Shown: positions 9,682-61,688 of the stretch, in pieces
Position numbering within the stretch: position 1 is the first letter of the stretch
Layout of the letters: each line of letters opens with the position of its first letter
NCBI GenBank assembly: GCA_963812605.1
Contig: CAWEWF010000008.1
Coordinates: 1 to 64,000, forward strand
DNA length: 64,000 bases
Direction: 5' to 3'
From: an uncultured Verrucomicrobiae bacterium
Lineage (GTDB): Bacteria > Verrucomicrobiota > Verrucomicrobiia > Palsa-1439
Notes under the pieces: generated by a model
Seen by the model: the letters and a program-made list of their open reading frames with translations, nothing else
Told to the model about the DNA's origin: nothing
Database searches by the model: none
Position numbers and translations under genes: made by a program

Positions 9682-12774
<3,093 letters not shown>

Positions 12775-12893: not shown

Positions 12894-15197
12894 CTAGCTT
12901 TTCAAACTTGACCAGCCGTCGGAGCTTCGTCGTCCCTCAATAACTCGACCGACAGGACAATGCTCGGTGATGGAGTAAACCAAACCGGCCTGATGCACAC
13001 GCAAGCCGAGAAGAGTACGTACTTCGCAACAGATAGCGAGGTGGTTTCCATTTGGAGACAGAACTGCGGCTTCCACGCGACAACGCCCCGTCTTGAGGGT
13101 CAGCGCGACTTGTGTTGCAACGGCTTCCCATAATTGAGACTCATCGGCGCTTCTTCTAACGCCGATAAGTAAGTCGGTGAGCGCCCGGATGCAGGTGCCA
13201 TTGGACGTGGCAAATTCGACGTGGATGGACAGGCCTGTCAGTTCCCCGTTCTGCTCAAAGCGGATGTATTCGCGGCCGCCGTTTTCTTCCACAAGATATG
13301 TACCAAATGACTGCGGCGTAATCCGCGCGCCGAAACTTTTAAGCGCGTTGAGAACAAATTCGGCAGAATCCATACGGTGGATGATGACTGGCAGGGTCGG
13401 AGCGCGAGGCCCGATATATTCGGCACCATCCATACCGCCCAGCATAGTATTGATGTTCTTTTCCTCGATCTCTAGTGTGCTCTTTGCCTTGGCAATGCTT
13501 AGCTCTGCTTGTCGGGTTTTTGCCTCTACGTCTATGCCCGCAAGGGCGGCGATAACCAACTCGCGGATTCTCTCATCAAAGCTTGTTTCCCCGTTCTCCT
13601 CTTCGTCCCCAATTCCAGACGCCCCAAGAAGCGCTTCGATATCACCGATCGCGTGAGATGCCATCTGAAGTTTTTCCATCAAGCGTCCAACGATGTATTC
13701 TTCAAAAGTCCCACGTAGCATAATGTTAAAGATGGCGACACTTTTGTGCTCGCCTCCTAAGCGTTGCACGCGGCCGATGCGCTGCTCAACGATCATCGGG
13801 TTCCAGGGGAGATCGTAGTTAACCAGTACATTCGCGACCTGAAGGTTCACACCTTCGGATCCGGCTTCTGTAGAAACTATGACATGGCACTCCGGTGGAT
13901 CGCTTCGGAAGCGAGCAAGGGTGTCTTGATTGCGCTGGCCAGAACTTCCGTTGATTATTCCGACTTTGAGGCCCTTGCTCTCCAAGAACAATTGGATAGT
14001 GGTTTGGGTCTCCACACGTATGGTGAATACAACCAACCGCCAGCGCTCAGAGTTTTCCCGTTTTAGCTTGTCGATCAGGGCACCAAGTCCACCCAATTTC
14101 GCACTAGTGGACATTCCGGTTACAATGGTGCGAACAGTTGAAGCTAATTCCTGAGGAACGGTGCCGTTCCTTGCCATGTTGTTCAACTGCGCCATTAGAG
14201 CTTGAGGACTACTCGTCAAAGCTTGCAGGATTGAAATCTGTGACAATCGGTTCAGCTGTTGGATCGGCTTGGCGATAGCTTTGATGAGTTGCAGCTCCGC
14301 CGTAGTCGGTTCGACCTTGTGCATTTGCACAACACGATCGGGAAAATACAGCTTGGCATCACCTCGCCGAACTCGCGACATATAGCCATAGACAATCGAC
14401 CGGAACTCGTCTTGGGCCTCACCTTTCAAATGGCGAGCCTGGTCCCGACCGTCGGCGATGAACTTCCGGGCAAACACGCCCTCGCTGCCAAATGGATTTT
14501 GGTGCCCACGCGCGATGGTCAGCAAATCAACTAACGAATACAGATCCCACAAACGGTTTTGTATCGGTGTCGCCGTCAACATGAGGACGAAGCGAAATCG
14601 GCGGTCTTCCAGTGCCTTGCGAAAGCGCGTTGCAACCTGCGGTGGTTTTTCAGTGCCATAGAGGTTTCGAAGTTTGTGCGCCTCATCTAATACCAACATT
14701 TGGAAACGATCCTGCGGGATTGAATCGAGATATAACCGAGCGGACTGATAGGTTGTAATGAGGGCTCCGGGTTCCTCAGGATCAGCCGTAGTCAGATCTC
14801 TGCCGGTCGCAATCACAGACGGGATATTAAATTTGCTGAGAAGTTCTTCCTGCCACTGGGGGCCCAGCAGCTTGGGACACACGATAAGAGTTTTCTGAAG
14901 TCGTGACCGGGAGATTAACTCACTCATGATGAGTCCGGCACTGATTGTCTTACCGAGACCAACATCGTCAGCGAGTAACGTCACCGGCAGACGACGGCAG
15001 AAAGTAATGAGATTTGTAACTTGGTGGTGATAAGGCTCGACTCGATCGTGCCAGCGATTTTTTGATTTTAGATCATCGCGGGTCTCAATAACGATTGGGT
15101 CGGTCAAGTCCCATTCGAGACCCGCCCGATAGACGCGGTACTCCTCTGGCATGGTCTTGGGGCGAAGTATCTTTGTTTGAAATTGCGAAGAGGACAC
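12894..15197 (-). CDS. SNF2/RapA-like SF2 helicase; C-terminus probably truncated or fused after ~13230
   Basis: LLADDVGLGKT, LDEAHKLRN, LTATPIQN, STEAGSEGVNLQ, YDLPWNPMIVEQRIGRVQR; visibly more AT-rich than its flanks. Confidence 0.85.
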   Translation of the reverse strand: MSSSQFQTKILRPKTMPEEYRVYRAGLEWDLTDPIVIETRDDLKSKNRWHDRVEPYHHQVTNLITFCRRLPVTLLADDVGLGKTISAGLIMSELISRSRLQKTLIVCPKLLGPQWQEELLSKFNIPSVIATGRDLTTADPEEPGALITTYQSARLYLDSIPQDRFQMLVLDEAHKLRNLYGTEKPPQVATRFRKALEDRRFRFVLMLTATPIQNRLWDLYSLVDLLTIARGHQNPFGSEGVFARKFIADGRDQARHLKGEAQDEFRSIVYGYMSRVRRGDAKLYFPDRVVQMHKVEPTTAELQLIKAIAKPIQQLNRLSQISILQALTSSPQALMAQLNNMARNGTVPQELASTVRTIVTGMSTSAKLGGLGALIDKLKRENSERWRLVVFTIRVETQTTIQLFLESKGLKVGIINGSSGQRNQDTLARFRSDPPECHVIVSTEAGSEGVNLQVANVLVNYDLPWNPMIVEQRIGRVQRLGGEHKSVAIFNIMLRGTFEEYIVGRLMEKLQMASHAIGDIEALLGASGIGDEEENGETSFDERIRELVIAALAGIDVEAKTRQAELSIAKAKSTLEIEEKNINTMLGGMDGAEYIGPRAPTLPVIIHRMDSAEFVLNALKSFGARITPQSFGTYLVEENGGREYIRFEQNGELTGLSIHVEFATSNGTCIRALTDLLIGVRRSADESQLWEAVATQVALTLKTGRCRVEAAVLSPNGNHLAICCEVRTLLGLRVHQAGLVYSITEHCPVGRVIEGRRSSDGWSSLKS

Positions 15198-15884: not shown

Positions 15885-17302
15885 TTAGTGCGCGCCGAGG
15901 CCGGTGAGGACGACGGGGACGGTGCGGGCGAGAATTTTGAGGTCGAGCCAGAGGGACCAGTTGTCGATATATTGGAGGTCGAGTTTCATCCATTGGTCGA
16001 AACCGATCTGGTTGCGGCCGCTGATCTGCCAGATGCAGGTGAGGCCAGGCTTCATGGAGAGCCGACGGCGATGCCACGGGTCGTAGTGCTGCACTTCGCT
16101 GGGGATGGGCGGGCGCGGTCCGACGAGGCTCATGTTGCCAACGAGAACATTCCAGAGTTGGGGAAACTCATCGATGCTGGTGCGGCGCAGGAAATGGCCG
16201 ATCGGGGTGACGCGCGGGTCGTCCTTCATTTTGAAGACGGGGCCGGTCATTTCGTTGTAGGCGGCGAGCTCCGCTTGCAACATTTCGGCGTTGGTGACCA
16301 TCGAGCGGAACTTGTACATCGTGAAGAGGCGTCCGTGCAGGCCGCTGCGTTTCTGTCCAAAAAGGATGGGGCCGGGCGAGGTGAGCTTGATGATGATGGC
16401 GGCGGGCAGCAGGACCAGCGGCCCGAGGATCAACAGCCCGACGGTCGCGCCGACAATGTCGATCAGCCGTTTGCAGACGAGCTGCCAGGAAATCTCCGGG
16501 GTGGTGCTGAAAATCAGCAGCGGTTTCCCGTAAAAATCGTCCACGGTGGCGCGGGCGATGGAGGTCTTCACGAAGTCGGCGACCAGCCAGGCCTCGACGC
16601 CTTCCAGTTCGCAAGCCAGGATCGCTTTCTCGATCTCGCTGAAGGAGGTCTGGCTGACATTGAAGATCACGCAGCCAACGGGATGGCAGTGCAACATCGC
16701 GGGAAGCTGGTCAACGAGGTTGTCGCTGGGGTCGAGCCGGGCGGTGACGCGCAGGCTCCATTCGGGATGTTCCTCCAGCAAGCCGGCGAACTCGGCGTTC
16801 CGCTCTTCCGATCCCACCAGGATGACTTCCGTGAGGTCCTTTCCGCGGCGGGCGCGCTGGTGCATGTAGACCTGAAACAGCCGTCCTTGGCGAAAAGCGC
16901 GACGATGCTGAACAGCGCGAAGAACACAATGACCTCGCGACTGAGCATGGTCAGCCGGAAAAAGAACATCGCGGCCATGACCGCCAGCGTGCAGATGGCG
17001 CAGCTTTTGACGAGAATCCAGACCGTGTTGCGGCGGCGCAGGGTGTGGGCGCGGCTGTAGAAGCCATTCAGATCGAGCAAAAACGGGTAGAGCGGCAGGA
17101 TGACCAGGTAGAGATATTTGTAATAGCGAAACGAGGTGATCATCCCGAATTGGGTCGCGAACCCGTGGAAGGAAAGGGGGAATGGAAACAGATACGCGAG
17201 CTCCTCGCGCATCGCGTGGGCCAGCCGAAAGACCACGGCGATCAGCAGCGCGTCGCTGATCTGGTTGACCTGGACAATAAATTCTCTTCGTCTACTCGCC
17301 AT
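15885..17302 (-). CDS. Polyprenyl-phosphate sugar phosphotransferase (WcaJ/EpsB-type priming glycosyltransferase), frameshift near 16880
   Basis: N-terminal TM helices; [68 protein letters not shown]. Confidence 0.92.
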
Positions 17303-17376
17303 TGAAACATCCAAGCGCTCCCGGGGAGCGAGTTCATGTACACTGCAAAAACGCGGCGGTTCACCGCCGATTACCG

Positions 17377-18158
17377 TTAGTTCGCGACGAGGGTGGGATA
17401 GATATCCTGCACAAACCCGGCCACGAGCTTCATCGTTTGCTCTTCGGATTTGCCCTTGCCGTCGGTCTCACTCTGCGTCACGGGTATATGGATCAAAATG
17501 TAGGCCCAGCGGTGATTGGTGTTGTGCAACACGCGGTCCTTGGCCGTCCAATAGATGCGCTGCCAGTGGTACGGCGTCACCCGGTCCTTGCCCACGAACC
17601 AGTAGAGGAAGATCGAGTGCGTCTTCGCAGTGTGTCCATCGGACAAGGGCACGTCCCGCGTGGCATTCAATCGCGACACGGCGAGCACGCCGCCCTTCGC
17701 GGCCGGGTGGAAATGTCTTCGACCTGCAGTTTCCCGAGTCGCCAACCCTGGCCCGTCAGGCAGAGTTCGGGGCGGTGAATGCTGGTCACATCCCGCCCGG
17801 CCAGCACAATCGAACAAAACAACTCGTCGCCATCCTTGTCCTTGAACAAACGCCGCGACCCCATGGTGTCTTCCGGGAGGATTTTTTTCTCTTCCTCCGT
17901 CAAACCGCTCAACTCCCCGCCGGTCCAGTTGCCGGCCTTGTCGGTCAAAAATGGTTGTCCGCTTTCACTCAACTTTACGCCGGGCTCGGAAACTTTCGTC
18001 ACATCGGAGGTCATCGCCGTGAACAACACGCCGCCGCCGAGGATCGCCACGACGATGGCGATTTGCCGGGTGCTCGGCCCCCGGTGTGTTGTCACCGCGG
18101 AGCGCGCGGACGGTGGTTCGGCCGCGGTTGGAGTCGCGTTTACGCCGGATTCGTTCAT
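17377..18158 (-). CDS. epsI: Exosortase-associated EpsI family protein, frameshift near 17705
   Basis: TM anchor, EEEKKILPEDT, SIHRPELCLTGQGW, IFLYWFVG, RWAYI; directly downstream of an exosortase. Confidence 0.85.
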
Positions 18159-18180: not shown

Positions 18181-19320
18181 TCAAAGCGGTTCGTCATTAT
18201 GCGGGCCGTCGTTCGGCGGTGGCGGCGGCGGCTTCAGCCAATTCTCGAAATAGCGGCGGAACGAGAAATTCAACAGGAGCCCGATAATGACCATCGTCGA
18301 CAGCGCCACGGGAAAAACGATGAAGCCTGAATATTCATGATACGCTTTGGCGGCAATTTCCTGGCCGTAGACTTCCGCTACCAGGGCGATGGAAGTCACG
18401 CGCACGATGTTGCCCAGCACGGCCAGCGGCATCGCGCTCAGGAACAACACCCACCGTTTCCATTGCACATGCTGCGTCACGTAGGCGTAGGCGGCAGTCA
18501 CGGTGGTCAGCGCCATGAGCGACCGGATCCCGCTGCACGGCGCGGCCACATCGAAATGGAACACCCGGGAATAAATCCCCGTCCCGATCCGCGTCGTCTC
18601 GATCCCCAGCAGGTTCAGGATGGTGGTCGACGATCGGGCCATCAATAATTGCAGCGGAAAACCGACTCGCTCATCCAAAAAATTCAGTGGAATCATCAAC
18701 AGAAGAAAAGTGATGGGAAAGAAAAGCAGGCGGAAGACTCCGCGTCCGCCGAGCGCCAACGCCAAACCATGAAGCAGGATCACGAAGGAGAACACAACGA
18801 TGCGGGGTTGCATGGCTTTTACGCCGAAGTAATAGATCGCCATTGCCACAGCCACCAGGGCGACTCCCCGCGGATCGGAGTCATCCATGAATTCCCGGAT
18901 TCCGTCCCACAATGCCGCCACTTGCCAGAACAAGAGAAAGGGCGCCAGCCGAAGCGCGTAGGGCGCCAGCGAATCCGAGATCATGTCCGGAGCTACCAAA
19001 ACAACCATGGTGGCTCCCAGTGCGATCCAGTAGGGATTCCAATTTCGCTGCTCGTTGGCGGTGTTGCTGGAGAGATTCCACCAGAGGAGGAAAATCGCGA
19101 TGAGGGGAATCAGCGGCCCGTGCGAGTAATTGGAGACGTGACTCCAGTGGCTGGTGAGCCAGATGTAGCAATTCAACTGGGAAGCGTGCTCCGCCTCAAC
19201 AGTTTGCACAAAATAGGCGTAGTAGACCAAACCGGCCAGAACCACCCCAAGGGCAACCTTCACCCAGTCGACAGTACTGGAGGGAAGTCTGACCGCCGCA
19301 ATCGAAGTCCCGTTACTCAT
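18181..19320 (-). CDS. Exosortase (EpsH-type transpeptidase)
   Basis: YSHGPLIP, LLLMIP, VAAPCSGIRSL (Cys), GNIVRV (Arg), YHEYSG (His); multiple TM helices. Confidence 0.92.
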   Translation of the reverse strand: MSNGTSIAAVRLPSSTVDWVKVALGVVLAGLVYYAYFVQTVEAEHASQLNCYIWLTSHWSHVSNYSHGPLIPLIAIFLLWWNLSSNTANEQRNWNPYWIALGATMVVLVAPDMISDSLAPYALRLAPFLLFWQVAALWDGIREFMDDSDPRGVALVAVAMAIYYFGVKAMQPRIVVFSFVILLHGLALALGGRGVFRLLFFPITFLLLMIPLNFLDERVGFPLQLLMARSSTTILNLLGIETTRIGTGIYSRVFHFDVAAPCSGIRSLMALTTVTAAYAYVTQHVQWKRWVLFLSAMPLAVLGNIVRVTSIALVAEVYGQEIAAKAYHEYSGFIVFPVALSTMVIIGLLLNFSFRRYFENWLKPPPPPPNDGPHNDEPL

Positions 19321-19436: not shown

Positions 19437-20954
19437 ATGAAACGGCTCATCCTTTTCGTGCTCGTCCTCGCCTTGGCAAGCTGCCAGCGCTCCCGCCAAC
19501 CCGAACCAGCCACCCTGACGTTTGCCCGCGGGGCGGATTCGCAGAAGCTCGACCCCGCCGACGTGGACGACGGCGAATCGATGAAGGTCCTCGTCAATGT
19601 CACCCAGGGTTTGGTGCGCTTCAAACACGGCACCACGGAGCCCGAACCCTGCCTGGCGACTTCCTGGACCATCAGTCCCGACGGTCTCACCTACACCTTC
19701 CAACTCCGCCCGGGCGTTAGCTTTCATGATGGCACACCGCTCGACGCGCAGGCCGCCGCATTCAGTTTTCTCCGGCAAATGGACAAGTCCCACCCGGCGC
19801 ATCTGCGGGATGCCACGTTCGCGTACTGGTCGGCCATGTTCAACATGATCACCGCGGTCGAGGTCGTCGACCCGATGACCCTGCGACTGCGACTGCGCGA
19901 GCCGAATGCGCCGCTGCTCGCCAGCCTTTGTATCCCGGCCGCGCACCTGATTAGTCCGAAGTTCATTGATCAGCGTCATCCTGTCGGCACCGGTCCGTTC
20001 CGCTTTGTGGATTGGACACCCAACGAGCGCATTGTGCTGGAAGCCAATCCCGATTACTGGGAAGGCCAGCCCAAAGTCCAGCGCGTCATCTTCAAGGTCG
20101 TTCCCGACTCCGCCACCCGCTTGATCCAGCTTCAAACGGGCCAAATCCAGGCAATGGACGGCATCGATCCGAACGATCTGCCCATCATCAAGCGCGACAA
20201 ATCACTGCAGTTGATCACGGCGCTGGGATTGAATGTTTGCTACCTCGCCTTCAATTGCCAAAAGCCGCCACTCGACAACAAAGTCCTGCGCCGTGCCATC
20301 GCCGCCGCCATCAACAAGAAGGACATCATCGATAACGTCTATCGCGGCGCGGCCATCGTTGCGCGGAATCCTCTGCCACCGTTCGTCGCCGGCCACAACG
20401 ACGCGATCCCGGAACAGCTCTATGAAACGGTTCAGCCCTGGCCCGCCCTGCAGCATCCGTTGCGGCTTGAAGTGATGACGAATCCGCGACCGTACTTGCC
20501 CAATCCGCTGCGCGCCGCGGAGATGATCAAGTCCGACCTGGCAAAGATCCAGGTCCCCGTCGAAATTGTCCCGAATGAATGGGGTGCGCACCTTAGCCGC
20601 ACCGAGCACGGCGACCACGAATTGGCGTTGATGGGCTGGGTGGGCGACAACGGTGATGCCGACAATTTTCTCTACGTGCTCCTCGACAAAGATACCGCCA
20701 CGCTCGGTTCCGCGCTTAATATCTGTTTCTGGATGAATGATTCCTACCACGATCTCATGATCGCCGCGCGCCGTGAACTCGATCCCGCGAAACGCGCCGC
20801 GCTCTATCACAAATCGCAGGAGATCATCTTCGAGGAAGCACCCATGGTTCCGCTCGCGCACGCCGAGTCGCTGCTGGCTTGCCGCGCGAACACCAATGGC
20901 ATCCTCTTCGAGCCCAACGGCGATATCCTCTTCTACAAAGCTACGGTGAATTGA
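19437..20954 (+). CDS. dppA: Peptide/nickel ABC transporter substrate-binding lipoprotein (SBP family 5)
   Basis: LASC lipobox, LATSWTISPDGLTYTFQLRPGVSFHDG, PVGTGPFRF, RPYLPNP, GWVGDNGDADNF. Confidence 0.88.
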   Translation: MKRLILFVLVLALASCQRSRQPEPATLTFARGADSQKLDPADVDDGESMKVLVNVTQGLVRFKHGTTEPEPCLATSWTISPDGLTYTFQLRPGVSFHDGTPLDAQAAAFSFLRQMDKSHPAHLRDATFAYWSAMFNMITAVEVVDPMTLRLRLREPNAPLLASLCIPAAHLISPKFIDQRHPVGTGPFRFVDWTPNERIVLEANPDYWEGQPKVQRVIFKVVPDSATRLIQLQTGQIQAMDGIDPNDLPIIKRDKSLQLITALGLNVCYLAFNCQKPPLDNKVLRRAIAAAINKKDIIDNVYRGAAIVARNPLPPFVAGHNDAIPEQLYETVQPWPALQHPLRLEVMTNPRPYLPNPLRAAEMIKSDLAKIQVPVEIVPNEWGAHLSRTEHGDHELALMGWVGDNGDADNFLYVLLDKDTATLGSALNICFWMNDSYHDLMIAARRELDPAKRAALYHKSQEIIFEEAPMVPLAHAESLLACRANTNGILFEPNGDILFYKATVN

Positions 20955-22721
20955 GCACACGAAACACGATGAAGCGTCCGCTTTCCGTTATCCGCTGGAA
21001 ATGCCGGAGTTGCTCCGGGTGGTTCTCGAACAACACCACGGCGCAACGGACATCCAGCGGCCCCAGTTTGTTAGCCTTGTAGCGTCGCGAATCCTGTCCG
21101 TCATACGAGAACCCCGCATCATATATGAAGTAGTCGGCCTCGTACTTGCGCGCAAAGTCATAGAATTGCTCTTCACTCCCGTAAATCGCCGCCAGCATCT
21201 CGCGATAGCGTTCGCGGATCCGTTGATTCTCGAATTTCGAATGCATGATGATCGGCCGTCCTGTGTGCGCGAGGAACACGGGCGACTCCGAGATCGAGGC
21301 GAGCACAACGGCGTTCGTCGGCGTGTTTTCCTGCAGCCATTTCACGATCGGGCGATACTCGTTCGGCGCCGGCTGCTGCCGTTCCAGTGGCAGGAAATTC
21401 AGCATCGCCAATTGCCACACGGCGGCGACGAAAACCAGCCACTTTCCCCAGATGTACTGCGCCGCCAGTCCCGCCGCCACCACCGCGACCGCAAACCCCA
21501 GGAACGTGAAACAGCGCAATGCCATCCACGCCAGCGGCACGAGCAGCAGGGTAAACACGATGAAAATATTCGTGGCGCAAGGGACGCGCTTCCCGCTGGT
21601 TAACAAGAATGCCACCGACACCAGCGCCAAGGGCCCACAAAACAACAAGCTGCGCCAAAACTCATGCCACGGCGCGGTTTCAAAAGAGCCGCCTTCCCAC
21701 AACAACCGCGCTTCCCACGGCAGGTCCGCGGGATTGACCGGCTTCACACCCAGAAAGCGCAGCTTGTACACGAAGAGTTGGTACACGTGCGCGTACTCGC
21801 TGGAAGACTTCAGCACCAATGCGCTCAAGAGCAGCCAGCCCGTTGCCCAGCCCGCAAACACCAGCGTCGCCCGCTTGCGTCCGCCATTGATCCACACAGC
21901 CAGCGCCAACGCATAGAGCACGCACATCGTCGGCGACAGAAAAACATGTTTCGCCCGCAACACGGGAATCAACATCGTGCCCGCCGCCAGCATCAGGACG
22001 AACCACGGAAGCCGCGGCGTTTCCCCTTGCTGAGATACACGATGGTTGTGGCCAGCACCAGCGGCGCCATCACGAATTGCGTCAGGTGCCAACTCGCCAG
22101 CGCCGCGAGCCAGAACAGCGCGGCCAAAATCTGGTCGCGTATCCGCTGGTCCTGCAGCGCGCGCACGATGAAGTAGAGCCCGAAAATTATCAGGGGAATC
22201 GCGAAGTCTTCGCGCAGAAACAGGTTCTTCACCGTCCGCCCATAGCTCGGATACAACGCCGCGTAGAGCGCGCTGGCGAAGATCCCCGCCGCATTGCTGC
22301 GCCAGAGGGCCCGCGCGAGGAAGAAGACGCCGAACAAGGACAGGCTGGAAACAAGACAGTCGTACCAAACCACAAAAACATGAAACGGCGGCATTTGGAG
22401 GGCGAGGCTCCCGCCGAGCCGATACAACACGCCGACCGGCACTTCCATTGCCACGGTGAATTCGGCCCAGTCGTCCATCGTGTCCGGATACTGGACCGCG
22501 CGGTCGCGCGAAAGCTGGCCCCAGTCGCGAAGGGGATGTGACGCAAAGAATTTTGCGAACCGATACTGAAACGCGCCCTCGCTCCAGAGTTGCCCCACCT
22601 CATCCTGCGCATCCCAGGTCGGGTTGGAAAAAATCTTCGCCGTCTTCAGATGGACGTGAAACGCGTATAAAGCAGTGACTACCGCCAAACAAAACAAAAG
22701 TCGCCGCCACGAGTTCGTCAT
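20941..22721 (-). CDS. GT-C fold membrane glycosyltransferase resembling DPY19 C-mannosyltransferase, frameshift near 22025
   Basis: SEGAFQYRF..DRAVQYPDT..EVPVGVLYR, FLREDFAIP, SWHLTQF, and C-terminal KWLQENTPTNAVVLA..TGRPIIMHSKFENQRIRER; no WWDYG motif. Confidence 0.7.
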
Positions 22722-23009
22722 CACAGCGATTCTTAACCGCGACGCCCCCTGATTACAAACCCCTTGTGGGAGCATCGGTGAATCCACAAAGCGCAGCGGA
22801 CCTCTCTTTTCCTTTCCGGAACGTGGGAGCAACCTCCCGGTCGCGAATAAGCTGCCCCCCTCCTGAAGTTGTCACCCTGTCCATGCCAGTTGTGGCTCGA
22901 ACGTCGCTTGTATAATCCAAACAACGACCTTGCTCAGCCGCTCAACCCTCGGCATACTGGACGCATGCTATCCATACAGCACATCCGACTTCGATCTTGA
23001 TGGTGGTTT

Positions 23010-23514
23010 ATGTATATCCACTCCATTCTTCTCGAAAGCATAAAACCCTTCGAACGTATCGACCTCAATTTCCTACGACCCGGTCAACCTGACCACAATT
23101 ACGCAGGCTTGAACTTCTTTGTCGGGGGAAACTCTTCTGGCAAGTCCAGCATCCTGAAGTGCATGGCTATGGCATTGGCGGGTCCTACCGTGGCAAACCA
23201 ACAGCTTATCACGCCAGCCGGATGGATTCGGCGCGAAGCCACGAGAGGATTGATAGAATTGGAAGTCCATTGGGACCAAGCAAAGGATTCCTTTAAGATT
23301 AAAGGAGGAACGCCAGCAGCCGATGCTACCTTTAAGGCTGGACTCGTACGCGCTCATGCTCGATATAATTCATAACATGGCAATTGCGTACGGAGCTTCA
23401 AACCTGTTTTCCCGCGATGGAGATAACCGCATTGTTGTCAATCAGCCCGGTGTCATCCTGATTGATGAGCTGGAAGCACACTTGCATCCTAGTTGGCAGA
23501 GGACAATATTGTAG
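23010..23514 (+). pseudogene. AAA/ABC-type ATPase (PtuA-like) with an internal deletion and a 3' truncation
   Basis: Walker A GGNSSGKSS; jump at ~23340 to YALMLDII..GVILIDELEAHLHPSWQR (Walker B/D-loop), then a stop. Confidence 0.75.
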
Positions 23515-24049
23515 TTCGAATGAGCCTTCTCAACTCGAACACTTTCGCCCTCTTGCTTTCTTTCCGGAAAACGCTTTGGATTACGGCAATTATCTTTGGT
23601 CCTGCGACATCTGCAACAGAACGTACAAAGGCGAAAAATTTCCTCCGACCACTGAACCAGGGGCGCCCATTTTAAATCCACTGGACGATAACGTGTGGGA
23701 ATATTTTTTTGTCGATGACATTTTTGGTCGACTACTCATGCGTATCGACCTAACGACGAGTCAACCCCTGCCACGAGCGGTTAGTACATGCAACGTAGTC
23801 GGAATTGATCGGGAGAATGTTCAGACAAAGCGAATCCGCCGATTCAGTAATCTTCGCCGCAACGCACTCCGGGTTTTGGGTGAGCTGCAAGCTGGCACTT
23901 TGTCTACCGCGATTGTACAGACCGAAATTGCAGATTGGCGTTCGGAACCATTCCAAGCAGATGTCGCTGACTACTTTCTGAACGGTCCAGGCCGTTCCAA
24001 GGAGCCATTTCGAACGCTATTGTTGGCAGTTGGAGAAGCTGTAGCCTAA
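23507..24049 (+). pseudogene. HNH endonuclease (PtuB-like) lacking its N-terminus
   Basis: YCSSNEPSQLEHFRP..NYLWSCDICNRTYKGEKFP..ILNP; begins in mid zinc-knuckle without a start codon. Confidence 0.75.
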
Positions 24050-24194: not shown

Positions 24195-24632
24195 CTACGG
24201 CGCGTTCGTCGAGGTGTTTTCGAAGACCACGAAGTCGGCGCGGACGTGGACTTCGGGGATGGAGAACAGGATGAAGAATTGCTCGTCTTGTTCGATCACA
24301 ATGTTCGCCGGGGTCAACGGGCCGCCGGCTTGGACCCCGCCGTTTTTATACATTCTATTAACCGCTTTCACCCGGCTGGCGGGCACGATCGTGAAAAGCC
24401 CCAGGAGCTTGAAACCGTGGTCATGGCCCACGGCACTCAGCTTTTGCGCATGAAAATTGGCCTGGGTAAGCTTGACTGTTGTGATGGTTCGAGGCGCTTC
24501 CGGAGCACCCGCGGCGGGATCAGGAGCAAGGGCCAGGGCCGTCAAGCTCGAGCAACCCGTCAGCAATGGCGCCGCCAGGCCGCACACCAGAAGGCTCACA
24601 CAAGCCCTGGCCGCAAGGTTCTGCAGATTCAC
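24195..24632 (-). CDS. Lipoprotein, DUF6567-like
   Basis: GTG start with GGAGG RBS, LTGC lipobox, VKLTQANF, GFKLLGLF, FFILFSIP..RADFVVF. Confidence 0.65.
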   Translation of the reverse strand: MNLQNLAARACVSLLVCGLAAPLLTGCSSLTALALAPDPAAGAPEAPRTITTVKLTQANFHAQKLSAVGHDHGFKLLGLFTIVPASRVKAVNRMYKNGGVQAGGPLTPANIVIEQDEQFFILFSIPEVHVRADFVVFENTSTNAP

Positions 24633-24927
24633 CGTTTCCTCCCCATGAATGATCTCCTTTGCCCTTATCATCGCGCGGCAAATTCAATTGCACAATCGGC
24701 CCAAACACTGACGCTCATCTCGGCGACCATTGCGAAAAACAATAGGGCGATCTCCTAGAGCTTATTTCGCAAACGCTGGTGGGCCGCCTCTGCGATGCGG
24801 CGTTGACGGGTTTCCGAAGAAATCCGCCGACACACAGTGTCGGCCTACAACGCAAAGCCAAGACGAACGGCCCGCGCTTCACAGAAGCGCGGCTACACCA
24901 GAGCGGCAACAAACGGAAAGGGCCGGC

Positions 24928-25527
24928 TCACGTCTTGGCGTGGAACTTGATGCCGCAGCCGACGAACTTGGTTTCCTTGACCGGAATCGGCTGGCCCGCG
25001 GTCGAAGCGGCGATCGCGTCCTGCAGGAAGTGGTCCTTGACCGCGCTCGCGTCCTGCGAGTCATCGATGGCGCCGTGGTACACTAGCTTGCCGTCCTTGT
25101 CGAAGAGGAACGCCTCGGGGGTGCGCGTCGCGCCAAACGCGCGCGCTACATCCGACGTGGCATCGACGACATAGGGGAACGTGAAGCCGAGCTTCTGGGC
25201 GCGCTTCTGCATCTCGGGGTAACTGTCCTCGGGATAATCGGCGGGATCGTTCGAGTTGATGACAATCACGCCCACGCCCTTGTCCTTGCCGGAATTGCCG
25301 ATGGCCGCGATGCGGTCCTGCCACGCTTTCACGAACGGACAATGATCACACGAGAAAATGACGAGCGTGCCGTTCTTGCCCGTCACGTCGGCAATGGACA
25401 CCTCTTTCCCGTCCACGTTCTTCATCTTTACGGTCGTGTCCGGCGCTTTGTCGCCGATATTCAGCCCAAACGCGCTGCCGGCCAGCGACAGCGATACGAT
25501 TAACGTCCCGAGCGAATTACTTTTCAT
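24928..25527 (-). CDS. Secreted thioredoxin-fold redoxin (AhpC/TSA-like)
   Basis: Signal peptide, IFSCDHCPFV, INSND, ARAFGATRTPE, YHGAIDD, GCGIK. Confidence 0.88.
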   Translation of the reverse strand: MKSNSLGTLIVSLSLAGSAFGLNIGDKAPDTTVKMKNVDGKEVSIADVTGKNGTLVIFSCDHCPFVKAWQDRIAAIGNSGKDKGVGVIVINSNDPADYPEDSYPEMQKRAQKLGFTFPYVVDATSDVARAFGATRTPEAFLFDKDGKLVYHGAIDDSQDASAVKDHFLQDAIAASTAGQPIPVKETKFVGCGIKFHAKT

Positions 25528-25550
25528 GCAATGCCTCCCGTTGGTTTGAT

Positions 25551-26060
25551 TCATTTGCCAAGGACTTCGACCACTTTCTGCTGAAAAACGTTGAAAGTGG
25601 TTTCGCCCTCCCAAAAATCCCGCAGTTTTCCCGTGCCGTCAAAAAGAAACGTCGCGGGCAGCGCGCCCGTCCAGTCTTTGCCCATCCCGTCGATGAACTC
25701 CTGGTCCTTCTCCGCCTTCAAGTACGCGGGAAACTCCACGCCGTGGTCGGCCAGGAACTTCTTCACTGCTGGCAGGTCGGTCTCCGCATCCGCCGAGACG
25801 AGCAGGACCTTCAACCCCTGCCCCTGGTACTTGTGCGCCACGCTCACGAGATCGGGAAATTCTGCCCGACAAGGGCCGCACCAGGTCGCCCACATATTTA
25901 CCAACACCGCCTTCGCGCCGGAGTCCCGCACCGCCTTTTGAAGGTCAGCGGCGGTAACCGGCGTCACCTTGACATCCTCGATCCGCACCGTGCTGCTCGG
26001 CTTGCTGCACCCCGCGCACAGCAGAAGTCCCGCCGCAATGATTCTTCGGGTAACCGTCAT
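25551..26060 (-). CDS. TlpA-family disulfide reductase lipoprotein
   Basis: CAGC lipobox, VNMWATWCGPCRAEFP, WTGALPAT. Confidence 0.9.
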   Translation of the reverse strand: MTVTRRIIAAGLLLCAGCSKPSSTVRIEDVKVTPVTAADLQKAVRDSGAKAVLVNMWATWCGPCRAEFPDLVSVAHKYQGQGLKVLLVSADAETDLPAVKKFLADHGVEFPAYLKAEKDQEFIDGMGKDWTGALPATFLFDGTGKLRDFWEGETTFNVFQQKVVEVLGK

Positions 26061-26148
26061 AAGCTTCCACAATAGTACATGAAATCCGTTGCCGCGCCAG
26101 CGGGTAATACGTAGTATTCCGAATGCTCCCGGGAAAGCGCATCATTCT

Positions 26149-26628
26149 ATGATCATCTCCAGCCTGGCCAATCTCGCGGCGGCCAGCTACCTCACCTGGG
26201 GTGGATTCAAGGGCTGGCGACGCGGTCTGGCCGTCGAACTCCCGCGATTGCTCAGCGTCACGCTGGCGCTGGTCACCGGCGCGGGTTTGATGTGGTGGGC
26301 GGACCGCGCGTTGGCGGACTTCGACAAGTTCACCGGGCAAGTCGCAGGCGCGCTGGGCTGGGGCGGCTCTCTCGTGGGCGCATTCTATCTGGCGCGCCGG
26401 TTGCGGGCGCGGATGGGACGCTGGATTATCGAGCAATTGCCCGAAGAGAGCGTCGAGAAACGGGCCGGCATGGCGGCGGGATTCCTCCGAACCCTCGTTA
26501 TCAGCGCCATGATCACCCTCTTTTTACTGCATACGCCGCTGGCCTTCCTCGTGCGCAATTCCATGATGGGCAGCCTCGCGAGGATGGTGCAGCCGGTCTA
26601 TCATATCGCCGACAAACCGCATCCTTGA
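26149..26628 (+). CDS. cvpA: CvpA (colicin V production) family membrane protein
   Basis: GWRRGLAVEL, four TM segments, EKRAGMAAGFLR, NSMMG. Confidence 0.65.
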   Translation: MIISSLANLAAASYLTWGGFKGWRRGLAVELPRLLSVTLALVTGAGLMWWADRALADFDKFTGQVAGALGWGGSLVGAFYLARRLRARMGRWIIEQLPEESVEKRAGMAAGFLRTLVISAMITLFLLHTPLAFLVRNSMMGSLARMVQPVYHIADKPHP

Positions 26629-27261: not shown

Positions 27262-28191
27262 CTACGGGCTGCTCAGCGGGCGCGTTGCTCCCGGTAGTTC
27301 CCTCGCCGCTGGTCGGCATCGCCCCGCGACCTTCCAGATCAGCCCCAATCCCAGGAAGTAGAACACGAGTCCCAGGGTTTCATGCACGAAGCCATACGGG
27401 AGTGTCGTCCGCGGCGCGACGAGGCAAATGCTGACGATCCTCAGGAAGTTGAAGCCGATGGCGATGGGGACCGACACCGCCCAGAGCGATAACTTCTCCA
27501 CCCATGGCATCCGGTTCTGGAATGCCAGAATGGTCGCCACAATCAAGGCCGACGTGAGCAATCCGAAGCCGTTGCATTCGGTGGCCACGACGAATATGTG
27601 GTCCTTCACATACAGGAGCAATTGCGGCGGCTGGCCCTGTTCCAGGGCAATTTTCACCGGTGATCCCATCGCCGCCAGCAACGCGCCGGCATACCGCGCC
27701 GCCATCGCCCGCAACGGCCAATCCAATGTCGGCACCAATCCCGCCAGCATACCGAACACGAAAAAAGCCCCGAGCGCCGGCAGGAATTGCCGGGCGCCAA
27801 TCTTGCCGAAGAGAAACGAAACGACGCCGGCGAATGACAGGCACGCCGACAAAACCACGAGCGGCAACAGCCACGGTCGCCAGCGCGCCCCCAACCACAG
27901 GCATCCCAGCGCCAGCGCGACCAGGCCAATCCCCTGGTTGTTGATCTGCGGCGCGGGCCGCAGGTCATGCACGGCATCGCGCACGCAAATCGCGAGCGCG
28001 ATCAGCACCAGCAGCGCGCCGTTGAGAAGCTGCTGGGTGTGGATCGTCATCGACCCCAACCAGTACAGCAACGGCAAATACAGCAACCCGATCAATACGC
28101 CGATCGCCAACACCATCAGCATGCTCGTCGAACGCACCGGCGGCGCATTCGTGACGCCGGCTGTCAGCGGCTTTTCAGTGGCGGATTGCAT
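27262..28191 (-). CDS. Second, divergent exosortase/archaeosortase family protein
   Basis: VATECNGFGLL (Cys), FNFLRIVSI (Arg), FVHETLG (His); about 8 TM helices. Confidence 0.8.
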   Translation of the reverse strand: MQSATEKPLTAGVTNAPPVRSTSMLMVLAIGVLIGLLYLPLLYWLGSMTIHTQQLLNGALLVLIALAICVRDAVHDLRPAPQINNQGIGLVALALGCLWLGARWRPWLLPLVVLSACLSFAGVVSFLFGKIGARQFLPALGAFFVFGMLAGLVPTLDWPLRAMAARYAGALLAAMGSPVKIALEQGQPPQLLLYVKDHIFVVATECNGFGLLTSALIVATILAFQNRMPWVEKLSLWAVSVPIAIGFNFLRIVSICLVAPRTTLPYGFVHETLGLVFYFLGLGLIWKVAGRCRPAARELPGATRPLSSP

Positions 28192-28230: not shown

Positions 28231-29413
28231 TTAGAGAGCGCGCTCGAGGATCTCGTGCAATTCCTCGTCGCGCAACGGCAGCGGGTTGCCTTTCATGCTG
28301 GTCGACGACTTCGCCTTCTCGATGATCGCCGGGAAATCATCGCGCTTCACGCCATACTGCCGCAAGCGGGGGAATCTTCAGCGCCCGAACCAACTCGCCG
28401 GTATCGCCGACGATCTGCGCCACTTCCTCAAAGCGCCGGACGATTTCCGTCGGGGCGGATACCGCGCCGCGACCGGCGGCCCGCGAATCATCCGCCGGTT
28501 GACTTCCATTACATGCGGCAGCAGGGCCGCGCACAACGCGCCGTGCGGCGCATCGAACATCCCGCCCAATGGCCCGGCCAGCCCGTGCACCGCGCCCAGG
28601 CCCGCGTTCGCCAATGCCATGCCGCCAAATAAACTCGCGACACACATGTCCTGCCGCGCCGACACATCCTCGCCATGCTCATAGGCCCGCCGCAACGATC
28701 GCGCCGTCCGCAGCAGGCCTTCCCGGCAAATCGCGTCGGTCAGCGGATTCGCCTTCACCGAGACAAACGCCTCGATCAATTGCGTCAGCGCATCCAATCC
28801 GGTGGTCGCCGTGAGCTGCGGCGGCAAATCGTAGGTGAGTTCCGGGTCCACTAGCGCCACGCGCGGCAACATGAGCGGACTTCGCAGGCTGACCTTCACG
28901 TGATGTTCGGGCGAACCCAGCACCGCGTTGCGGGTGACCTCCGAACCCGTCCCCGCCGTCGTCGGGATCGCCAGGTACGGCGCCGACGGTTGCGTGAGTG
29001 GCTGGCCCTTGCCGATCACCTCCACGTAATCCAGCGGGTCGCCGCCATTCGTGAGCAACGCCGCGATCGCTTTGCCCGTGTCGATCACGCTGCCGCCACC
29101 GAAACCGATGACGAAATCACAGCGCTCATCGCGCGCGCGCTGCGTCCCCGTCCGCGCGACATCAAGAGTCGGCTCGCCCACCACCGAAAACGTCGCATAC
29201 TCGATGCCCGGATTCCGTCAACGCACTCAACATCGGCTCGACCCGCTGTACCGCCCCCGCGTGCGTGGCCGTAGCCATTTCCGCGCGAAGGCCCGCCGAC
29301 TTGCCAATCACCACCAACGCCCGCTTCCCCAACCCCTGCGCCAGCGCGCCAACCTCCTTCAACTTCCCCGCGCCAAACAGAACGCGCGTCGCCGTGGCAA
29401 ATTCAAAGTTCAC
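28231..29413 (-). CDS. Iron-containing alcohol dehydrogenase, frameshifted
   Basis: FEFATATRVLFGAG, GGGSVIDTGK, IPTTAGTGSEVT, GLDALTQLIE, GAVHGLAGPLGG..HG; ends EILERAL*. Confidence 0.88.
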
Positions 29414-29682
29414 CTCCACAGTAAAATCGCCGCCCGTTGCCAGTGTGATGTTGAACAGGCGTTCCCTTGTTCCAGCAATGAATGGCCCGCTCCAGACTTG
29501 TACCGGCGCTTCTGTGAAGCGCCGAATAGCCGCGCCCTCGCCCTGCACCACGTTCGCCAAATTCATAACGCCGATCTCCCAACCTGTTGATAAAGCGCCT
29601 CTTAACTGGGGGGTTCGTTTCGCAGAAACGCATGTTTTCAAGACATCCCATCGCACTCCTGCTGGTTTCGGAAAGCCAGATT

Positions 29683-29721
29683 CCCCTCCTCTCCCCTTGG
29701 GGGAGAGGATTGAGGTGAGGG
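29683..29721. repeat. CCTCTCCCC/GGGGAGAGG..GAGGTGAGGG hairpin repeat
   Basis: Stem-loop resembling the widespread CCCTCACC..CCTCTCCC intergenic repeat type. Confidence 0.55.
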
Positions 29722-29758
29722 TATTCGCTTTCGCCGTTGTGGGGCGTGATGCCTGTCG

Positions 29759-29930
29759 TAGTGGCGCGGGCGTCCCGCCCGTGTCCTTCCGCCTCCGAGT
29801 TGAACAGGCGTCCCGCCTGTATCTTTTCGCCGCGTCATTCATCAATGCCTTGCCATAGTGGCGCGGGCGTCCCGCCCGTGTCTTTCCGCCTCCGAGTTGA
29901 ACAGGCGTCCCGCCTGTATCTTTTCGCCGC
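29759..29930. repeat. Tandem duplication of a 75-bp REP-containing unit (29759-29833 and 29856-29930)
   Basis: tagtggcgcgggcgtcccgcccgtg...cccgcctgtatcttttcgccgc twice, one mismatch, 22-bp spacer. Confidence 0.9.
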
Positions 29931-30356
29931 TTGCTGCCGACCGTCATACTCCAATCCATAATTCACTCCCCGCATCATACCATTATCGGAATTCGATGTA
30001 CAGAGGAAAACACCGCCACCGACTTCTCCACAATTGTAGGGCAGGCGGCCCGCCTGCCACCTCCCTCGTAGAACGGGCAGCCTGCCCTCCATAGCGCCCT
30101 CGCGACGGAGGGTCCCGCCCGTTCCCCAATCACCCTGCTTGTCGACCCGTCTCTCTGTCGATACACTCTATCGACATGATGGCTGACGGCGGCGCCCTCA
30201 TCACTTTACGGAAACCGTTCGTAAGCACGGAACGCGAATATCGGAATTCGATGTCCAGTCCGAAGATGCGTTATCCTTGCCAAGTCGTTGGTGGGGGTAG
30301 AACGTCCCGTGAGATGGACCGGCGAGCCGCGTCGCGGAAACACCGTCTTACGTGGT

Positions 30357-60790: not shown

Positions 60791-60961
60791 AGCAAACGAT
60801 TGCAGAATCCAGCCTGTTGGATGGCCAGCCAGCGAACCGATTTGACCGCTGAACTCAAAACGTATTTGATTAAAGGTCAAACCGGGTGTGGCCTTGGCCT
60901 CCCTGGCGATTTTTCTTCATAATGCTGTTGACAATTTTCCCAGAATTTGCAATCATTTGCA
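60791..60961 (+). promoter_or_regulatory. Two LacI-type operators plus a sigma-70 promoter (module 2)
   Basis: AGCAAACGATTGCA 60791-60804; TTGACA 60928; TGCAATCATTTGCA 60948-60961, same geometry as module 1. Confidence 0.75.
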
Positions 60962-61013
60962 TCAAGCGAGTATAGGAATTAGGGTTAGCAAAACCGAAGG
61001 GAGATATAAGGTT

Positions 61014-61688
61014 ATGGAGAAGCGAGTTAGTATTTCACTGGTGTGCGTTGCGATATGCACGCTGGTTATGTCCACAACGAGCAGCGCGCAAAATCTGCTG
61101 ACGGATCCCAACTTTGACATGGGAATCACAGCCCCCAATCCGAACCCGACCGCTATTCCTGGTTGGTCGGAGTTTGGCGGGGCGGCTATAACGCCAGAGG
61201 CTGTTGCGTTAAGTTTGCCGAACGTCATGCTCACACCCGCTGGTGGTGGTGGCTACAGCGTTCCGGGAGCGTATCAAAACTTCCCGGCTTCACCGGGTCA
61301 GGTGTTTACACTGTCGGGCTGGGTCTATACGCCCAATCTGCTGGTGAGCAATAGCAACGACTTTGCGATCTTGCAACTGTCGTGGTGGACCGGCAGTGGA
61401 TACAGCAATGCGGTCGGAACGGTGGCCGGCGTGAATGTTGGTACGCCCATCGGGCCGGGTCCCAGTACCGTCGCGCTCCCGCAGGGCGTGTGGACGTTCG
61501 CCAGTGTAACCGGAACGGCGCCGGCCGGCACAACCGGAATGAGCCCATTCCTTCTGGACATCAACGCGGATACGAATGGAACCTTCTACTTCGACAACAT
61601 GTCGCTTGTTCCTGAGCCGAGCACCGTGGCGATGGCGCTAACGGGTCTGCTGGGTCTTGTCGCGTTCGCCAAACAGCGTCGCGTGTAG
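61014..61688 (+). CDS. PEP-CTERM protein with a CBM-like domain
   Basis: GAAGGGAGA RBS and MEK start, QNLLTDPNFD, WTFASVTGTAPAGT, YFDN, VPEPST plus TM plus KQRR. Confidence 0.88.
   Translation: MEKRVSISLVCVAICTLVMSTTSSAQNLLTDPNFDMGITAPNPNPTAIPGWSEFGGAAITPEAVALSLPNVMLTPAGGGGYSVPGAYQNFPASPGQVFTLSGWVYTPNLLVSNSNDFAILQLSWWTGSGYSNAVGTVAGVNVGTPIGPGPSTVALPQGVWTFASVTGTAPAGTTGMSPFLLDINADTNGTFYFDNMSLVPEPSTVAMALTGLLGLVAFAKQRRV

Follow-up and report, generated by a model that had tools for sequence, protein, structure and literature searches.

Can a bacterium encode a relative of the enzymes that attach mannose to tryptophan in eukaryotes, and if it does, what would such an enzyme modify? In the relevant passages of two reviews (PMC6801728, PMC12990085), tryptophan C-mannosylation and its enzymes are placed in metazoa and alveolates only. 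The question is raised by a stretch of 64,000 nucleotides, hereafter the window, from an uncultured Verrucomicrobiae bacterium (assembly GCA_963812605.1, contig CAWEWF010000008.1, positions 1 to 64,000 of the forward strand). On its minus strand, at 20941..22721, lies a gene that an earlier note, made from the letters of the DNA, had taken for a DPY19-like glycosyltransferase of the GT-C fold class. The product of this gene is a real DPY19-family enzyme, and its resemblance to the family goes far beyond chance. It is probably a periplasmic protein glycosyltransferase. For its role as a whole, we lean modestly towards a functional periplasmic DPY19-type transferase, independent of metal and dependent on a polyprenyl-phosphate-hexose, that would act on an exported polypeptide tied to the exosortase system.

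The gene is spread over two overlapping minus-strand open reading frames (ORFs) in different frames, 21993..22832 (279 aa) and 20941..22368 (475 aa). Its parts are as follows.

20941..22721, minus strand: the Dpy19-like GT-C glycosyltransferase gene, about 593 aa when read through a one-base gap, with Pfam PF10034 (Dpy19) on both halves
22023..22721, minus strand: N-terminal part, 233 aa, frame A, with the first transmembrane helix, external loop 1 (EL1) with Glu48, then Arg162, Leu169-Arg170-Glu171 and Trp211 (Pfam Dpy19 43.8 bits; residue map from a hidden Markov model, HMM)
22023..22026, minus strand: the break site, a run of four G where orthologs have five G or GGGTG; the frame shifts after ...YLSKG
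20941..22023, minus strand: C-terminal part, 360 aa and stop, frame B, with Phe347, Arg403, the periplasmic dome and the loop His494-Ser-Lys-Phe497-Glu498...Arg503 (Pfam Dpy19 32.0 bits; HMM residue map)

The boundaries given in the earlier note are exact: the ATG at 22721 stands at the position of the conserved Met of the orthologs, and the stop codon lies at 20941. The frameshift it had noticed is also real. One base is missing from the G-run at 22023-22026, where the window reads AAGGGGAAAC and the two closest orthologs read AAGGGGGAAAC and AAGGGTGAAAC in a DNA alignment, and this is the sole difference that breaks the frame. The read-through product has 233 + 360 = 593 aa, joined at ...YLSKG/ETPRLPW.... 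The family matches are confined to the minus strand, and the plus-strand ORFs over the region gave no cause to consider them. The strings SEGAFQYRF, DRAVQYPDT, EVPVGVLYR, LREDF, WHLTQF and WLQENT...AV...TGRPIIMHSKFENQRIRER, on which the first assignment was built, are all present in the translations of these two ORFs, and their equivalents in C. elegans DPY-19 run in the same order in the HMM alignments.

To which family does the protein belong? Both halves pass the Pfam Dpy19 gathering cut-off of 27.2 bits, the N half with E 1.4e-11 over profile positions 35-232 and the C half with E 5.3e-8 over positions 508-591, and the three intact orthologs all reach 62.5-68.7 bits (E 4e-19 for one). PMT_2 matched the N half only, at 28.9 bits beneath the stronger Dpy19 match, and was absent at E <= 1 from the intact orthologs. 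Pfam STT3 (PF02516) had no match at E <= 1 on the window halves or the three orthologs, no MIR domain was matched, and NCBIfam holds no relevant model for the protein. When a profile of 23 close homologs was compared with the PDB, C. elegans DPY-19 (CeDPY19) came out best (E 3.5e-7) and STT3 next (5e-4 to 8e-3). A profile of 27 diverse prokaryotic members without tetratricopeptide repeats (TPRs) matched CeDPY19 over nearly its full length at E 3e-30 and 108.5 bits, while STT3 chains followed at E 7.6e-19 to 1.8e-11, the best at 70.8 bits.

The fold gives the same ranking. An AlphaFold2 model was made for the intact ortholog L005, which is 84% identical to the C-terminal part of the window protein. 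The model has a mean predicted local distance difference test score (pLDDT) of 75.9 and a predicted TM-score of 0.79, and consists of a helical membrane domain and an alpha/beta C-terminal domain that begins at about residue 445. Its matches among solved structures were these.

CeDPY19: Foldseek ranks 1-3, E 4.6e-15 to 1.5e-14, TMq 0.70-0.75; VIA-align Z 24.8, root-mean-square deviation 3.7-4.0, 556-565 residues aligned
STT3: Foldseek E 8e-13 to 5e-9; VIA-align Z 23.0 for STT3B, 22.1 for STT3A and yeast STT3
AglB: Foldseek E 7e-8; VIA-align Z 20.6
PglB: Foldseek E 3e-6; VIA-align Z 17.4
Pmt4: Foldseek E about 3e-3; VIA-align Z 16.7
ArnT: Foldseek E about 3e-3; VIA-align Z 13.4
AftA: Foldseek E 4.5e-5; VIA-align Z 11.7

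Since the structural margin over STT3 is below 2 Z units, it is the sequence profiles that decide for DPY19. By Pfam, PDB profile, Foldseek and VIA-align alike, DPY-19 stands ahead of STT3, AglB, PglB, PMT and ArnT, and the earlier assignment to the Dpy19 family of GT-C enzymes is borne out.

Are the residues that make DPY19 an enzyme also kept? The CeDPY19 structures (PDB 7ZLG, 7ZLH, 7ZLI) are described in Bloch et al. 2023 (PMC10154233). In the parts of that paper that concern the active site, Glu71 of EL1 is the catalytic carboxylate (Asp in DPY19L4), and Arg211, Arg471 and Trp262 bind the phosphate. For the acceptor, the same parts describe Tyr395, Phe401 and Tyr578 as an aromatic groove for Trp(0), and Lys473 and Leu474/Tyr as the pocket for Trp(+3)/Cys(+3). 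The window protein was mapped on CeDPY19 by HMM alignments, and each position was counted over 143 cluster representatives of at least 560 aa, as listed below (CeDPY19, then window protein, then representatives).

Glu71: Glu48, in an FWSE motif; 125 E and 11 D of 143
Arg211: Arg162; 129 R of 143
Leu218-Arg219-Glu220: Leu169-Arg170-Glu171; for the Glu, 134 E of 143
Trp262: Trp211; 141 W of 143
Phe401: Phe347; 121 F of 143
Arg471: Arg403; 143 R of 143
Loop His575-Pro-His-Tyr578-Glu579...Arg584: His494-Ser-Lys-Phe497-Glu498...Arg503; at Tyr578 F 107, Y 19 and W 9, at Glu579 E 139, at Arg584 R 137

The early Glu that the earlier note had singled out is thus the one aligned with the catalytic Glu71. 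The absence of the STT3 motif WWDYG holds too: neither half contains WWD or WW[DE]xG, WW[DE][YFW]G occurs in 0/143 representatives, and the position of the motif reads LASISESP in the alignment. At the metal site of oligosaccharyltransferases (OSTs), D-N-E of STT3 is met by L-R-E, as in DPY19; the first of these residues (position 164) is L/V/G/I in 105/143 representatives and E in 12. The acceptor site is a different matter. Phe347 and Phe497 provide aromatic equivalents of Phe401 and Tyr578 in the Trp(0) groove, while Tyr395 aligns with Ala in a loop whose alignment is unreliable owing to an 8-residue insertion with invariant Trp residues. The Trp(+3) pocket is not kept, with Phe405 in place of Lys473 and Thr406 in place of Leu474. 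Across the family the position of Lys473, number 400 in the orthologs, varies among the 143 representatives, with S 34, G 15, V 12, E 11, M 11 and others. A placement of VLRAK on the Arg471-Lys473 stretch, from an 8.8-bit domain, was rejected, as the 101-bit alignment puts the invariant Arg398 (ortholog numbering) on Arg471.

How widely is the gene found, and is it maintained? Of 41 genomes searched for the gene, 25 had a match, the source genome included: in 23/24 genomes of the same family, in the one genome (1/1) of a second family of the order, and in 0/15 across thirteen other families of the order and class. The relatives have intact frames of 583-697 aa, apart from two rows with one stop each; the intact orthologs of the same family measure 587-603 aa. 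Measured against two orthologs, the ratio of nonsynonymous to synonymous substitution rates (dN/dS) comes to 0.13 in the N half and 0.14-0.18 in the C half. These values are close to the 0.12 between the two intact orthologs, which means that both halves have been under purifying selection. On the scale of the phylum, a PF10034 match at E <= 1e-5 was found in 46/301 sampled genomes (source genome included) and in 0/14 control genomes. An exhaustive profile search gave 1038 cluster representatives at E <= 1e-3, of which 492 reach E <= 1e-30. The few named relatives are called "hypothetical protein" or "tetratricopeptide repeat protein" and come from metagenome-assembled genomes of Verrucomicrobiia/-ae and Elusimicrobiota; the nearest Atlas cluster is bacterial, with Planctomycetota as its commonest source. 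Among 22 sampled relatives, 21 passed Pfam Dpy19 and 13 carry C-terminal TPRs. A FastTree phylogeny was built from the 143 representatives (7 of 150 listed hits had been dropped for being shorter than 560 aa) and one ortholog, and 111 of its 144 tips are 700 aa or longer. The window type sits in a six-member clade, of which five members are shorter than 640 aa, and this clade lies within a larger one of 23 members, 18 of them long forms (support 0.98). As the short clade is nested among long, TPR-bearing forms, the window form looks derived and TPR-less. The TPR-tailed prokaryotic proteins belong to the same family, with 24-31% identity, 230-340 bits to the profile and the same conserved residues; the window clade differs from them by having no TPR tail and by its own exosortase, TlpA and solute-binding protein neighbourhood. 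The family is already in Pfam, while its bacterial branch, with the TPR-less form embedded among exosortase genes, is unstudied.

What then surrounds the gene? A Pfam scan covered 30 of the window's 63 long ORFs, those located between 5.7 and 38.4 kb, and minus-strand ORFs missed at first were scanned afterwards. The neighbouring features are the following.

12894-15197, minus strand: SNF2-family helicase beside the exosortase block; best NCBIfam match DISARM DrmD at 199.5 bits, far under the 610 cut-off
15885..17314, minus strand: exopolysaccharide (EPS) polyprenyl glycosylphosphotransferase, the priming enzyme, split near 16884; TIGR03025 351.1 bits (15885..16865) and 24.2 bits (16667..17314)
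17377..18158, minus strand: EpsI-like gene by position, which is that of the DUF3485/EpsI genes of loci L015, L019 and L020; split near 17707, pieces without NCBIfam match
18181..19320, minus strand: exosortase 1 (XrtA-like, 8TM_EpsH); TIGR02602 142.9 bits (cut-off 105.55)
19437..20954, plus strand: orphan family-5 solute-binding lipoprotein (DppA-like); Pfam SBP_bac_5 308 bits, NCBIfam DppA-like below cut-off
23010..24049, plus strand: AAA-ATPase fragments
24195..24671, minus strand: small ORF
24928..26072, minus strand: two genes for TlpA/ResA-like periplasmic thiol-disulfide oxidoreductases
26089..26628, plus strand: CvpA
27262..28191, minus strand: exosortase 2 (divergent, best XrtW-like); Pfam Exosortase_EpsH 105.7 bits
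28378..29959, minus strand: iron-containing alcohol dehydrogenase (Fe-ADH), split

The two exosortase genes, the only two found in the 4.17-Mb assembly, flank the Dpy19-like gene at 1.6 kb and 4.5 kb, so that the earlier note was correct in placing it beside an exosortase locus. The neighbourhood is conserved among eight related loci, in which 69 of 106 ORFs were scanned and the outermost ones dropped. An exosortase lies within about 7 kb of the Dpy19-like gene in six of the eight. SBP_bac_5 is the convergent neighbour in 5/8, and a PMT_2 GT-C gene takes its place in one genome. A redoxin gene is found a few kb upstream in 5/8, and in three of these TlpA/ResA-like genes stand directly upstream on the same strand (L018:8912-9508, L019:5529-6272, L021:8810-9616); in the window, the ATPase fragments are inserted between the TlpA/ResA-like genes and the Dpy19-like gene. 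Locus L020 has a co-directional run of Dpy19, PMT_2, exosortase, EpsI and EPS_sugtrans. Because the related genomes are kin, this is conserved synteny rather than independent recurrence.

Some of the neighbours may bear on the acceptor. The SBP_bac_5 lipoprotein gene is convergent with the Dpy19-like gene, with a 14-nt overlap at its 3' end, and no permease or ATPase gene for it was found among the ORFs scanned; the lipoprotein might, hypothetically, be a peptide-presenting partner standing in for the lost TPR tail. The TlpA/ResA-like neighbours hint at an acceptor with cysteines kept reduced. The SNF2-family helicase at 12894-15197 may be what is left of a defence island. The more distant loci, from other classes of the phylum, look different: in five of them (L031, L032, L035, L038, L039) a Dpy19-like gene of ~700 aa lies directly downstream of rpoN (sigma-54), and in five others (L033, L034, L036, L037, L040) one of ~700 aa lies beside a large secretin gene. 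Four of the secretin loci also contain genes for dephospho-CoA kinase/Rho or a 5'-3' exonuclease in the vicinity, and two contain genes with TSP3_bac repeats.

How would such an enzyme work? The gene would be functional and would encode a glycosyltransferase of the DPY19 family (Pfam PF10034, CAZy GT98-like) that crosses the membrane in about 13 helices and carries a small periplasmic dome at its C-terminus. If it works as C. elegans DPY-19 does, a single hexose, with mannose as the first guess, would be taken from a polyprenyl-monophosphate on the periplasmic side. The phosphate would be held by Arg162, Arg403 and Trp211, with Glu48 as the metal-independent acid/base. The sugar would pass to an extended segment of an exported polypeptide held between the periplasmic loops and the dome, and in this lineage the acceptor is probably linked to the surrounding exosortase/PEP-CTERM exopolysaccharide system. 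What the data establish is membership of the family, the fold, the conserved catalytic and donor-binding residues, purifying selection and the conserved neighbourhood; the donor, a protein acceptor and the tie to exosortase cargo are inferred.

The comparison with known systems shows where the likeness ends. With C. elegans DPY-19 and human DPY19L1-L4 the protein shares the Pfam family, the GT-C fold with C-terminal dome (Z 24.8), the EL1 Glu, the equivalents of Arg211, Trp262, Phe401 and Arg471, the L-R-E, the loop H-x-x-[FY]-E-x-x-x-I-R and the lack of WWDYG. It differs in having about 16% identity and about 590 aa instead of about 700, and in being bacterial and facing the periplasm, where the carrier would be a bacterial polyprenol instead of dolichol; the Lys473/Leu474 pocket is not kept, Tyr395 apparently is not, and no WxxW-rich substrates are visible. 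With STT3, AglB and PglB (GT66) it has in common the GT-C(A) architecture and the core of the dome (Z 17-23), and conserved residues of STT3 line up with its equivalents of Arg211 and Glu220, but it has no WWDYG, no D of D-x-E and no DK/MI-type motif context, and its profile and Pfam scores for these proteins are lower. The protein O-mannosyltransferases TMTC1-4 and PMT (GT105/GT39) are likewise protein-modifying GT-C enzymes, which depend on polyprenyl-phosphate-mannose. Like most relatives of the window protein, the TMTCs join TPRs, in their case luminal ones, to a GT-C module. Superposition on these enzymes is confined to the membrane part (Z 16-17, about 335 residues), a MIR domain is absent, and the score for Dpy19 exceeds that for PMT_2. 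The source genome also contains several ORFs of 400-660 aa (contigs C1, C8, C10, C14) with a membrane helix followed by ...PAL.GGF[VI][FW]DD..., a start that is presumably typical of bacterial GT-C proteins of the TMTC/PMT_2-TPR type.

Can donor and substrates be seen in the source genome? Five GT2 genes resemble polyprenyl-phosphate-sugar synthases (AglJ-, PpgS-, ArnC- or PgfS-like), and judged by this resemblance a polyprenyl-phosphate-sugar donor could be made. As for substrates, a regular expression found 23-29 PEP-CTERM ORFs. The 23 that have at least 150 aa contain one WxxW and one WxxC in 5,895 residues (0.17 per 1000 each), against 0.30 for WxxW and 0.24 for WxxC per 1000 residues genome-wide; there is no enrichment of either in the PEP-CTERM ORFs. 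Arrays of WxxW like those of thrombospondin repeats (TSRs) are also lacking in the genome, in which no ORF has more than five WxxW. With neither enrichment nor arrays, the canonical sequon is without an obvious clientele. One PEP-CTERM protein gene lies in the window itself, at 60888-61688 on the plus strand, with the tail ...YFDNMSLVPEPSTVAMALTGLLGLVAFAKQRRV. In the PEP-CTERM tails examined, a string [FY]-[DN]-N-x-[ST] precedes the PEP motif; it may be no more than the last strand of a lectin-like fold.

Several points weigh against the reading of a functional transferase for exported, exosortase-linked polypeptides. The conserved residues serve catalysis and donor binding, and most of them belong to machinery common to GT-C(A) enzymes, STT3 among them, which leaves donor and acceptor unfixed. 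STT3 is structurally nearly as close as DPY-19 (Z 23.0 and 22.1 against 24.8), and the L005 model falls below pLDDT 50 at 153-164, 225-227, 255-263, 299-303 and 440-443, including the loop of the Arg211 equivalent. The five GT2 candidates are unlinked to the Dpy19-like gene and all score below the equivalog cut-offs. The exosortase link is limited to one bacterial family of kin genomes; no exosortase stood near the Dpy19-like gene in any of ten more distant loci of the phylum, of whose 102 ORFs 84 were scanned. In the window the gene is convergent with its nearest neighbour and forms no operon with an exosortase. A full-text search of the literature returned no study of and no biochemical data on any prokaryotic Dpy19 homolog; the same search returned no GT-C enzyme tied to an exosortase. 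Finally, the frameshift could be genuine: among the public sequencing runs searched for this stretch none holds it (best share 0.07), and rpoB is intact at 1265 aa in the source genome, which neither confirms nor excludes an error-prone assembly.

Might the acceptor be a glycan or a lipid instead, for example through a side-branch sugar added to the exopolysaccharide of the neighbouring EPS/exosortase genes? This is the main rival to the favoured reading, and we regard it as rather unlikely. ArnT, Emb and Aft enzymes use polyprenyl-phosphate donors with non-protein acceptors, and many bacterial GT-C enzymes act on glycans or lipids. EPS genes are all around, with the priming glycosylphosphotransferase, the EpsI-like gene and the exosortases, and AftA, AftD and ArnT are among the fold matches. 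Yet these fold matches are far weaker than that to DPY-19 (Z 11-13 against 24.8; Foldseek E 4.5e-5 to 1.3e-2), and distant family members have no EPS context. A protein acceptor is favoured because the close solved relatives DPY19, STT3, AglB and PglB all glycosylate polypeptides, and the TPR tails of most relatives suggest binding of proteins.

A second possibility is that the gene has recently been inactivated, as a strain-specific pseudogene within a decaying exosortase locus. The frame is interrupted, as are those of the adjacent EPS_sugtrans and EpsI-like genes; degraded AAA-ATPase fragments are inserted upstream at 23010-24049, and the intact rpoB indicates that errors are not everywhere. 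On the other hand, all three local breaks are single-base deletions private to the window when it is compared with ortholog locus L015 (6.9 kb aligned), at 16884 in the EPS priming transferase, at 17707 in the EpsI-like gene and at 22023 in the Dpy19-like gene, the last in a homopolymer and each in a different conserved gene. Unrelated genes are split too. In all, at least five further genes of the window are divided between frames: 9738-11760 (AcrB/CusA-type pump), 15885-17314, 17377-18158, 23010-24049 (AAA/ABC-type ATPase) and 28378-29959 (Fe-ADH). The dN/dS of both halves equals that of the intact orthologs, and there are no further stops. The source assembly, with 15 contigs, about 90% completeness and 4.17 Mb, has a profile that presumably fits a long-read assembly with residual indel errors, and the window's assembly probably carries indel errors throughout. 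The source assembly also contains a single run of 41 G, probably an assembly artefact. Given intact orthologs, low dN/dS and similar one-base deletions in nearby genes, the break in the Dpy19-like gene is most likely a one-base assembly error, of which we are fairly confident, and true inactivation is unlikely.

Is the enzyme then a genuine tryptophan C-hexosyl or C-mannosyl transferase that acts, like eukaryotic DPY19, on Trp of exported proteins? The earlier note had proposed a lipid-linked-sugar protein glycosyltransferase with possible C-glycosylation of PEP-CTERM proteins. The Dpy19-family GT-C assignment, the donor and catalytic residues and the exosortase context agree with it, whereas the loss of Lys473 and the lack of WxxW/C enrichment do not. 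In favour of tryptophan, DPY-19 is the closest relative by every measure, the catalytic Glu, the equivalents of Arg211, Arg471 and Trp262 and the His575-Arg584 loop are conserved, and two of the three groove aromatics have aromatic equivalents (F in 121/143 at Phe401; F, Y or W in 135/143 at Tyr578). But the window protein has Phe in place of the Trp(+3) clamp Lys473, a position that varies across the family, and Thr in place of Leu474; Tyr395 meets Ala, with the uncertainty of that loop. The aromatic at the Tyr578 position is not specific to DPY19, since a Trp of STT3 also aligns with it. With no enrichment of WxxW or WxxC in the PEP-CTERM ORFs and no ORF with more than five WxxW, we find tryptophan C-transfer doubtful. 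At least as doubtful is a broader form of the idea, in which the prokaryotic family would attach a hexose to an aromatic residue of exported proteins (exosortase cargo in this case) through a carbon-carbon bond, at a sequon differing from WxxW, and eukaryotic DPY19 would have descended from it. An N-oligosaccharyltransferase of the STT3/PglB/AglB kind is very improbable: the STT3 profile matches are significant, the fold scores nearly equal (Z 20-23) and Pfam STT3 matches some relatives at sub-threshold or weak scores (P0121 22 bits, P0126 31.4 bits), but WWDYG is in neither the window protein nor any of 143 relatives, the D-x-E metal site is L-R-E, and DPY19 scores higher everywhere, with Pfam STT3 unmatched on the window halves and orthologs.

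What does a DPY19-type periplasmic transferase for an exported polypeptide mean for this lineage? In a bacterial gene, and in the family of at least 1038 sequence clusters to which it belongs, the residues of DPY-19 for catalysis and donor binding are preserved. However the sugar is linked, the family represents a large group of periplasmic glycosyltransferases that has gone unstudied, and it is relevant to the origin of the DPY19/STT3 pair. Its exosortase, EpsI, EPS-priming, TlpA-like and peptide-binding-protein neighbours suggest where the substrate may be sought. PEP-CTERM proteins have long been suspected of being modified, and the Dpy19-like enzyme is a candidate for this. If bacterial protein C-glycosylation, doubtful as it is, were to prove true, eukaryotic DPY19 would derive from bacterial periplasmic machinery.

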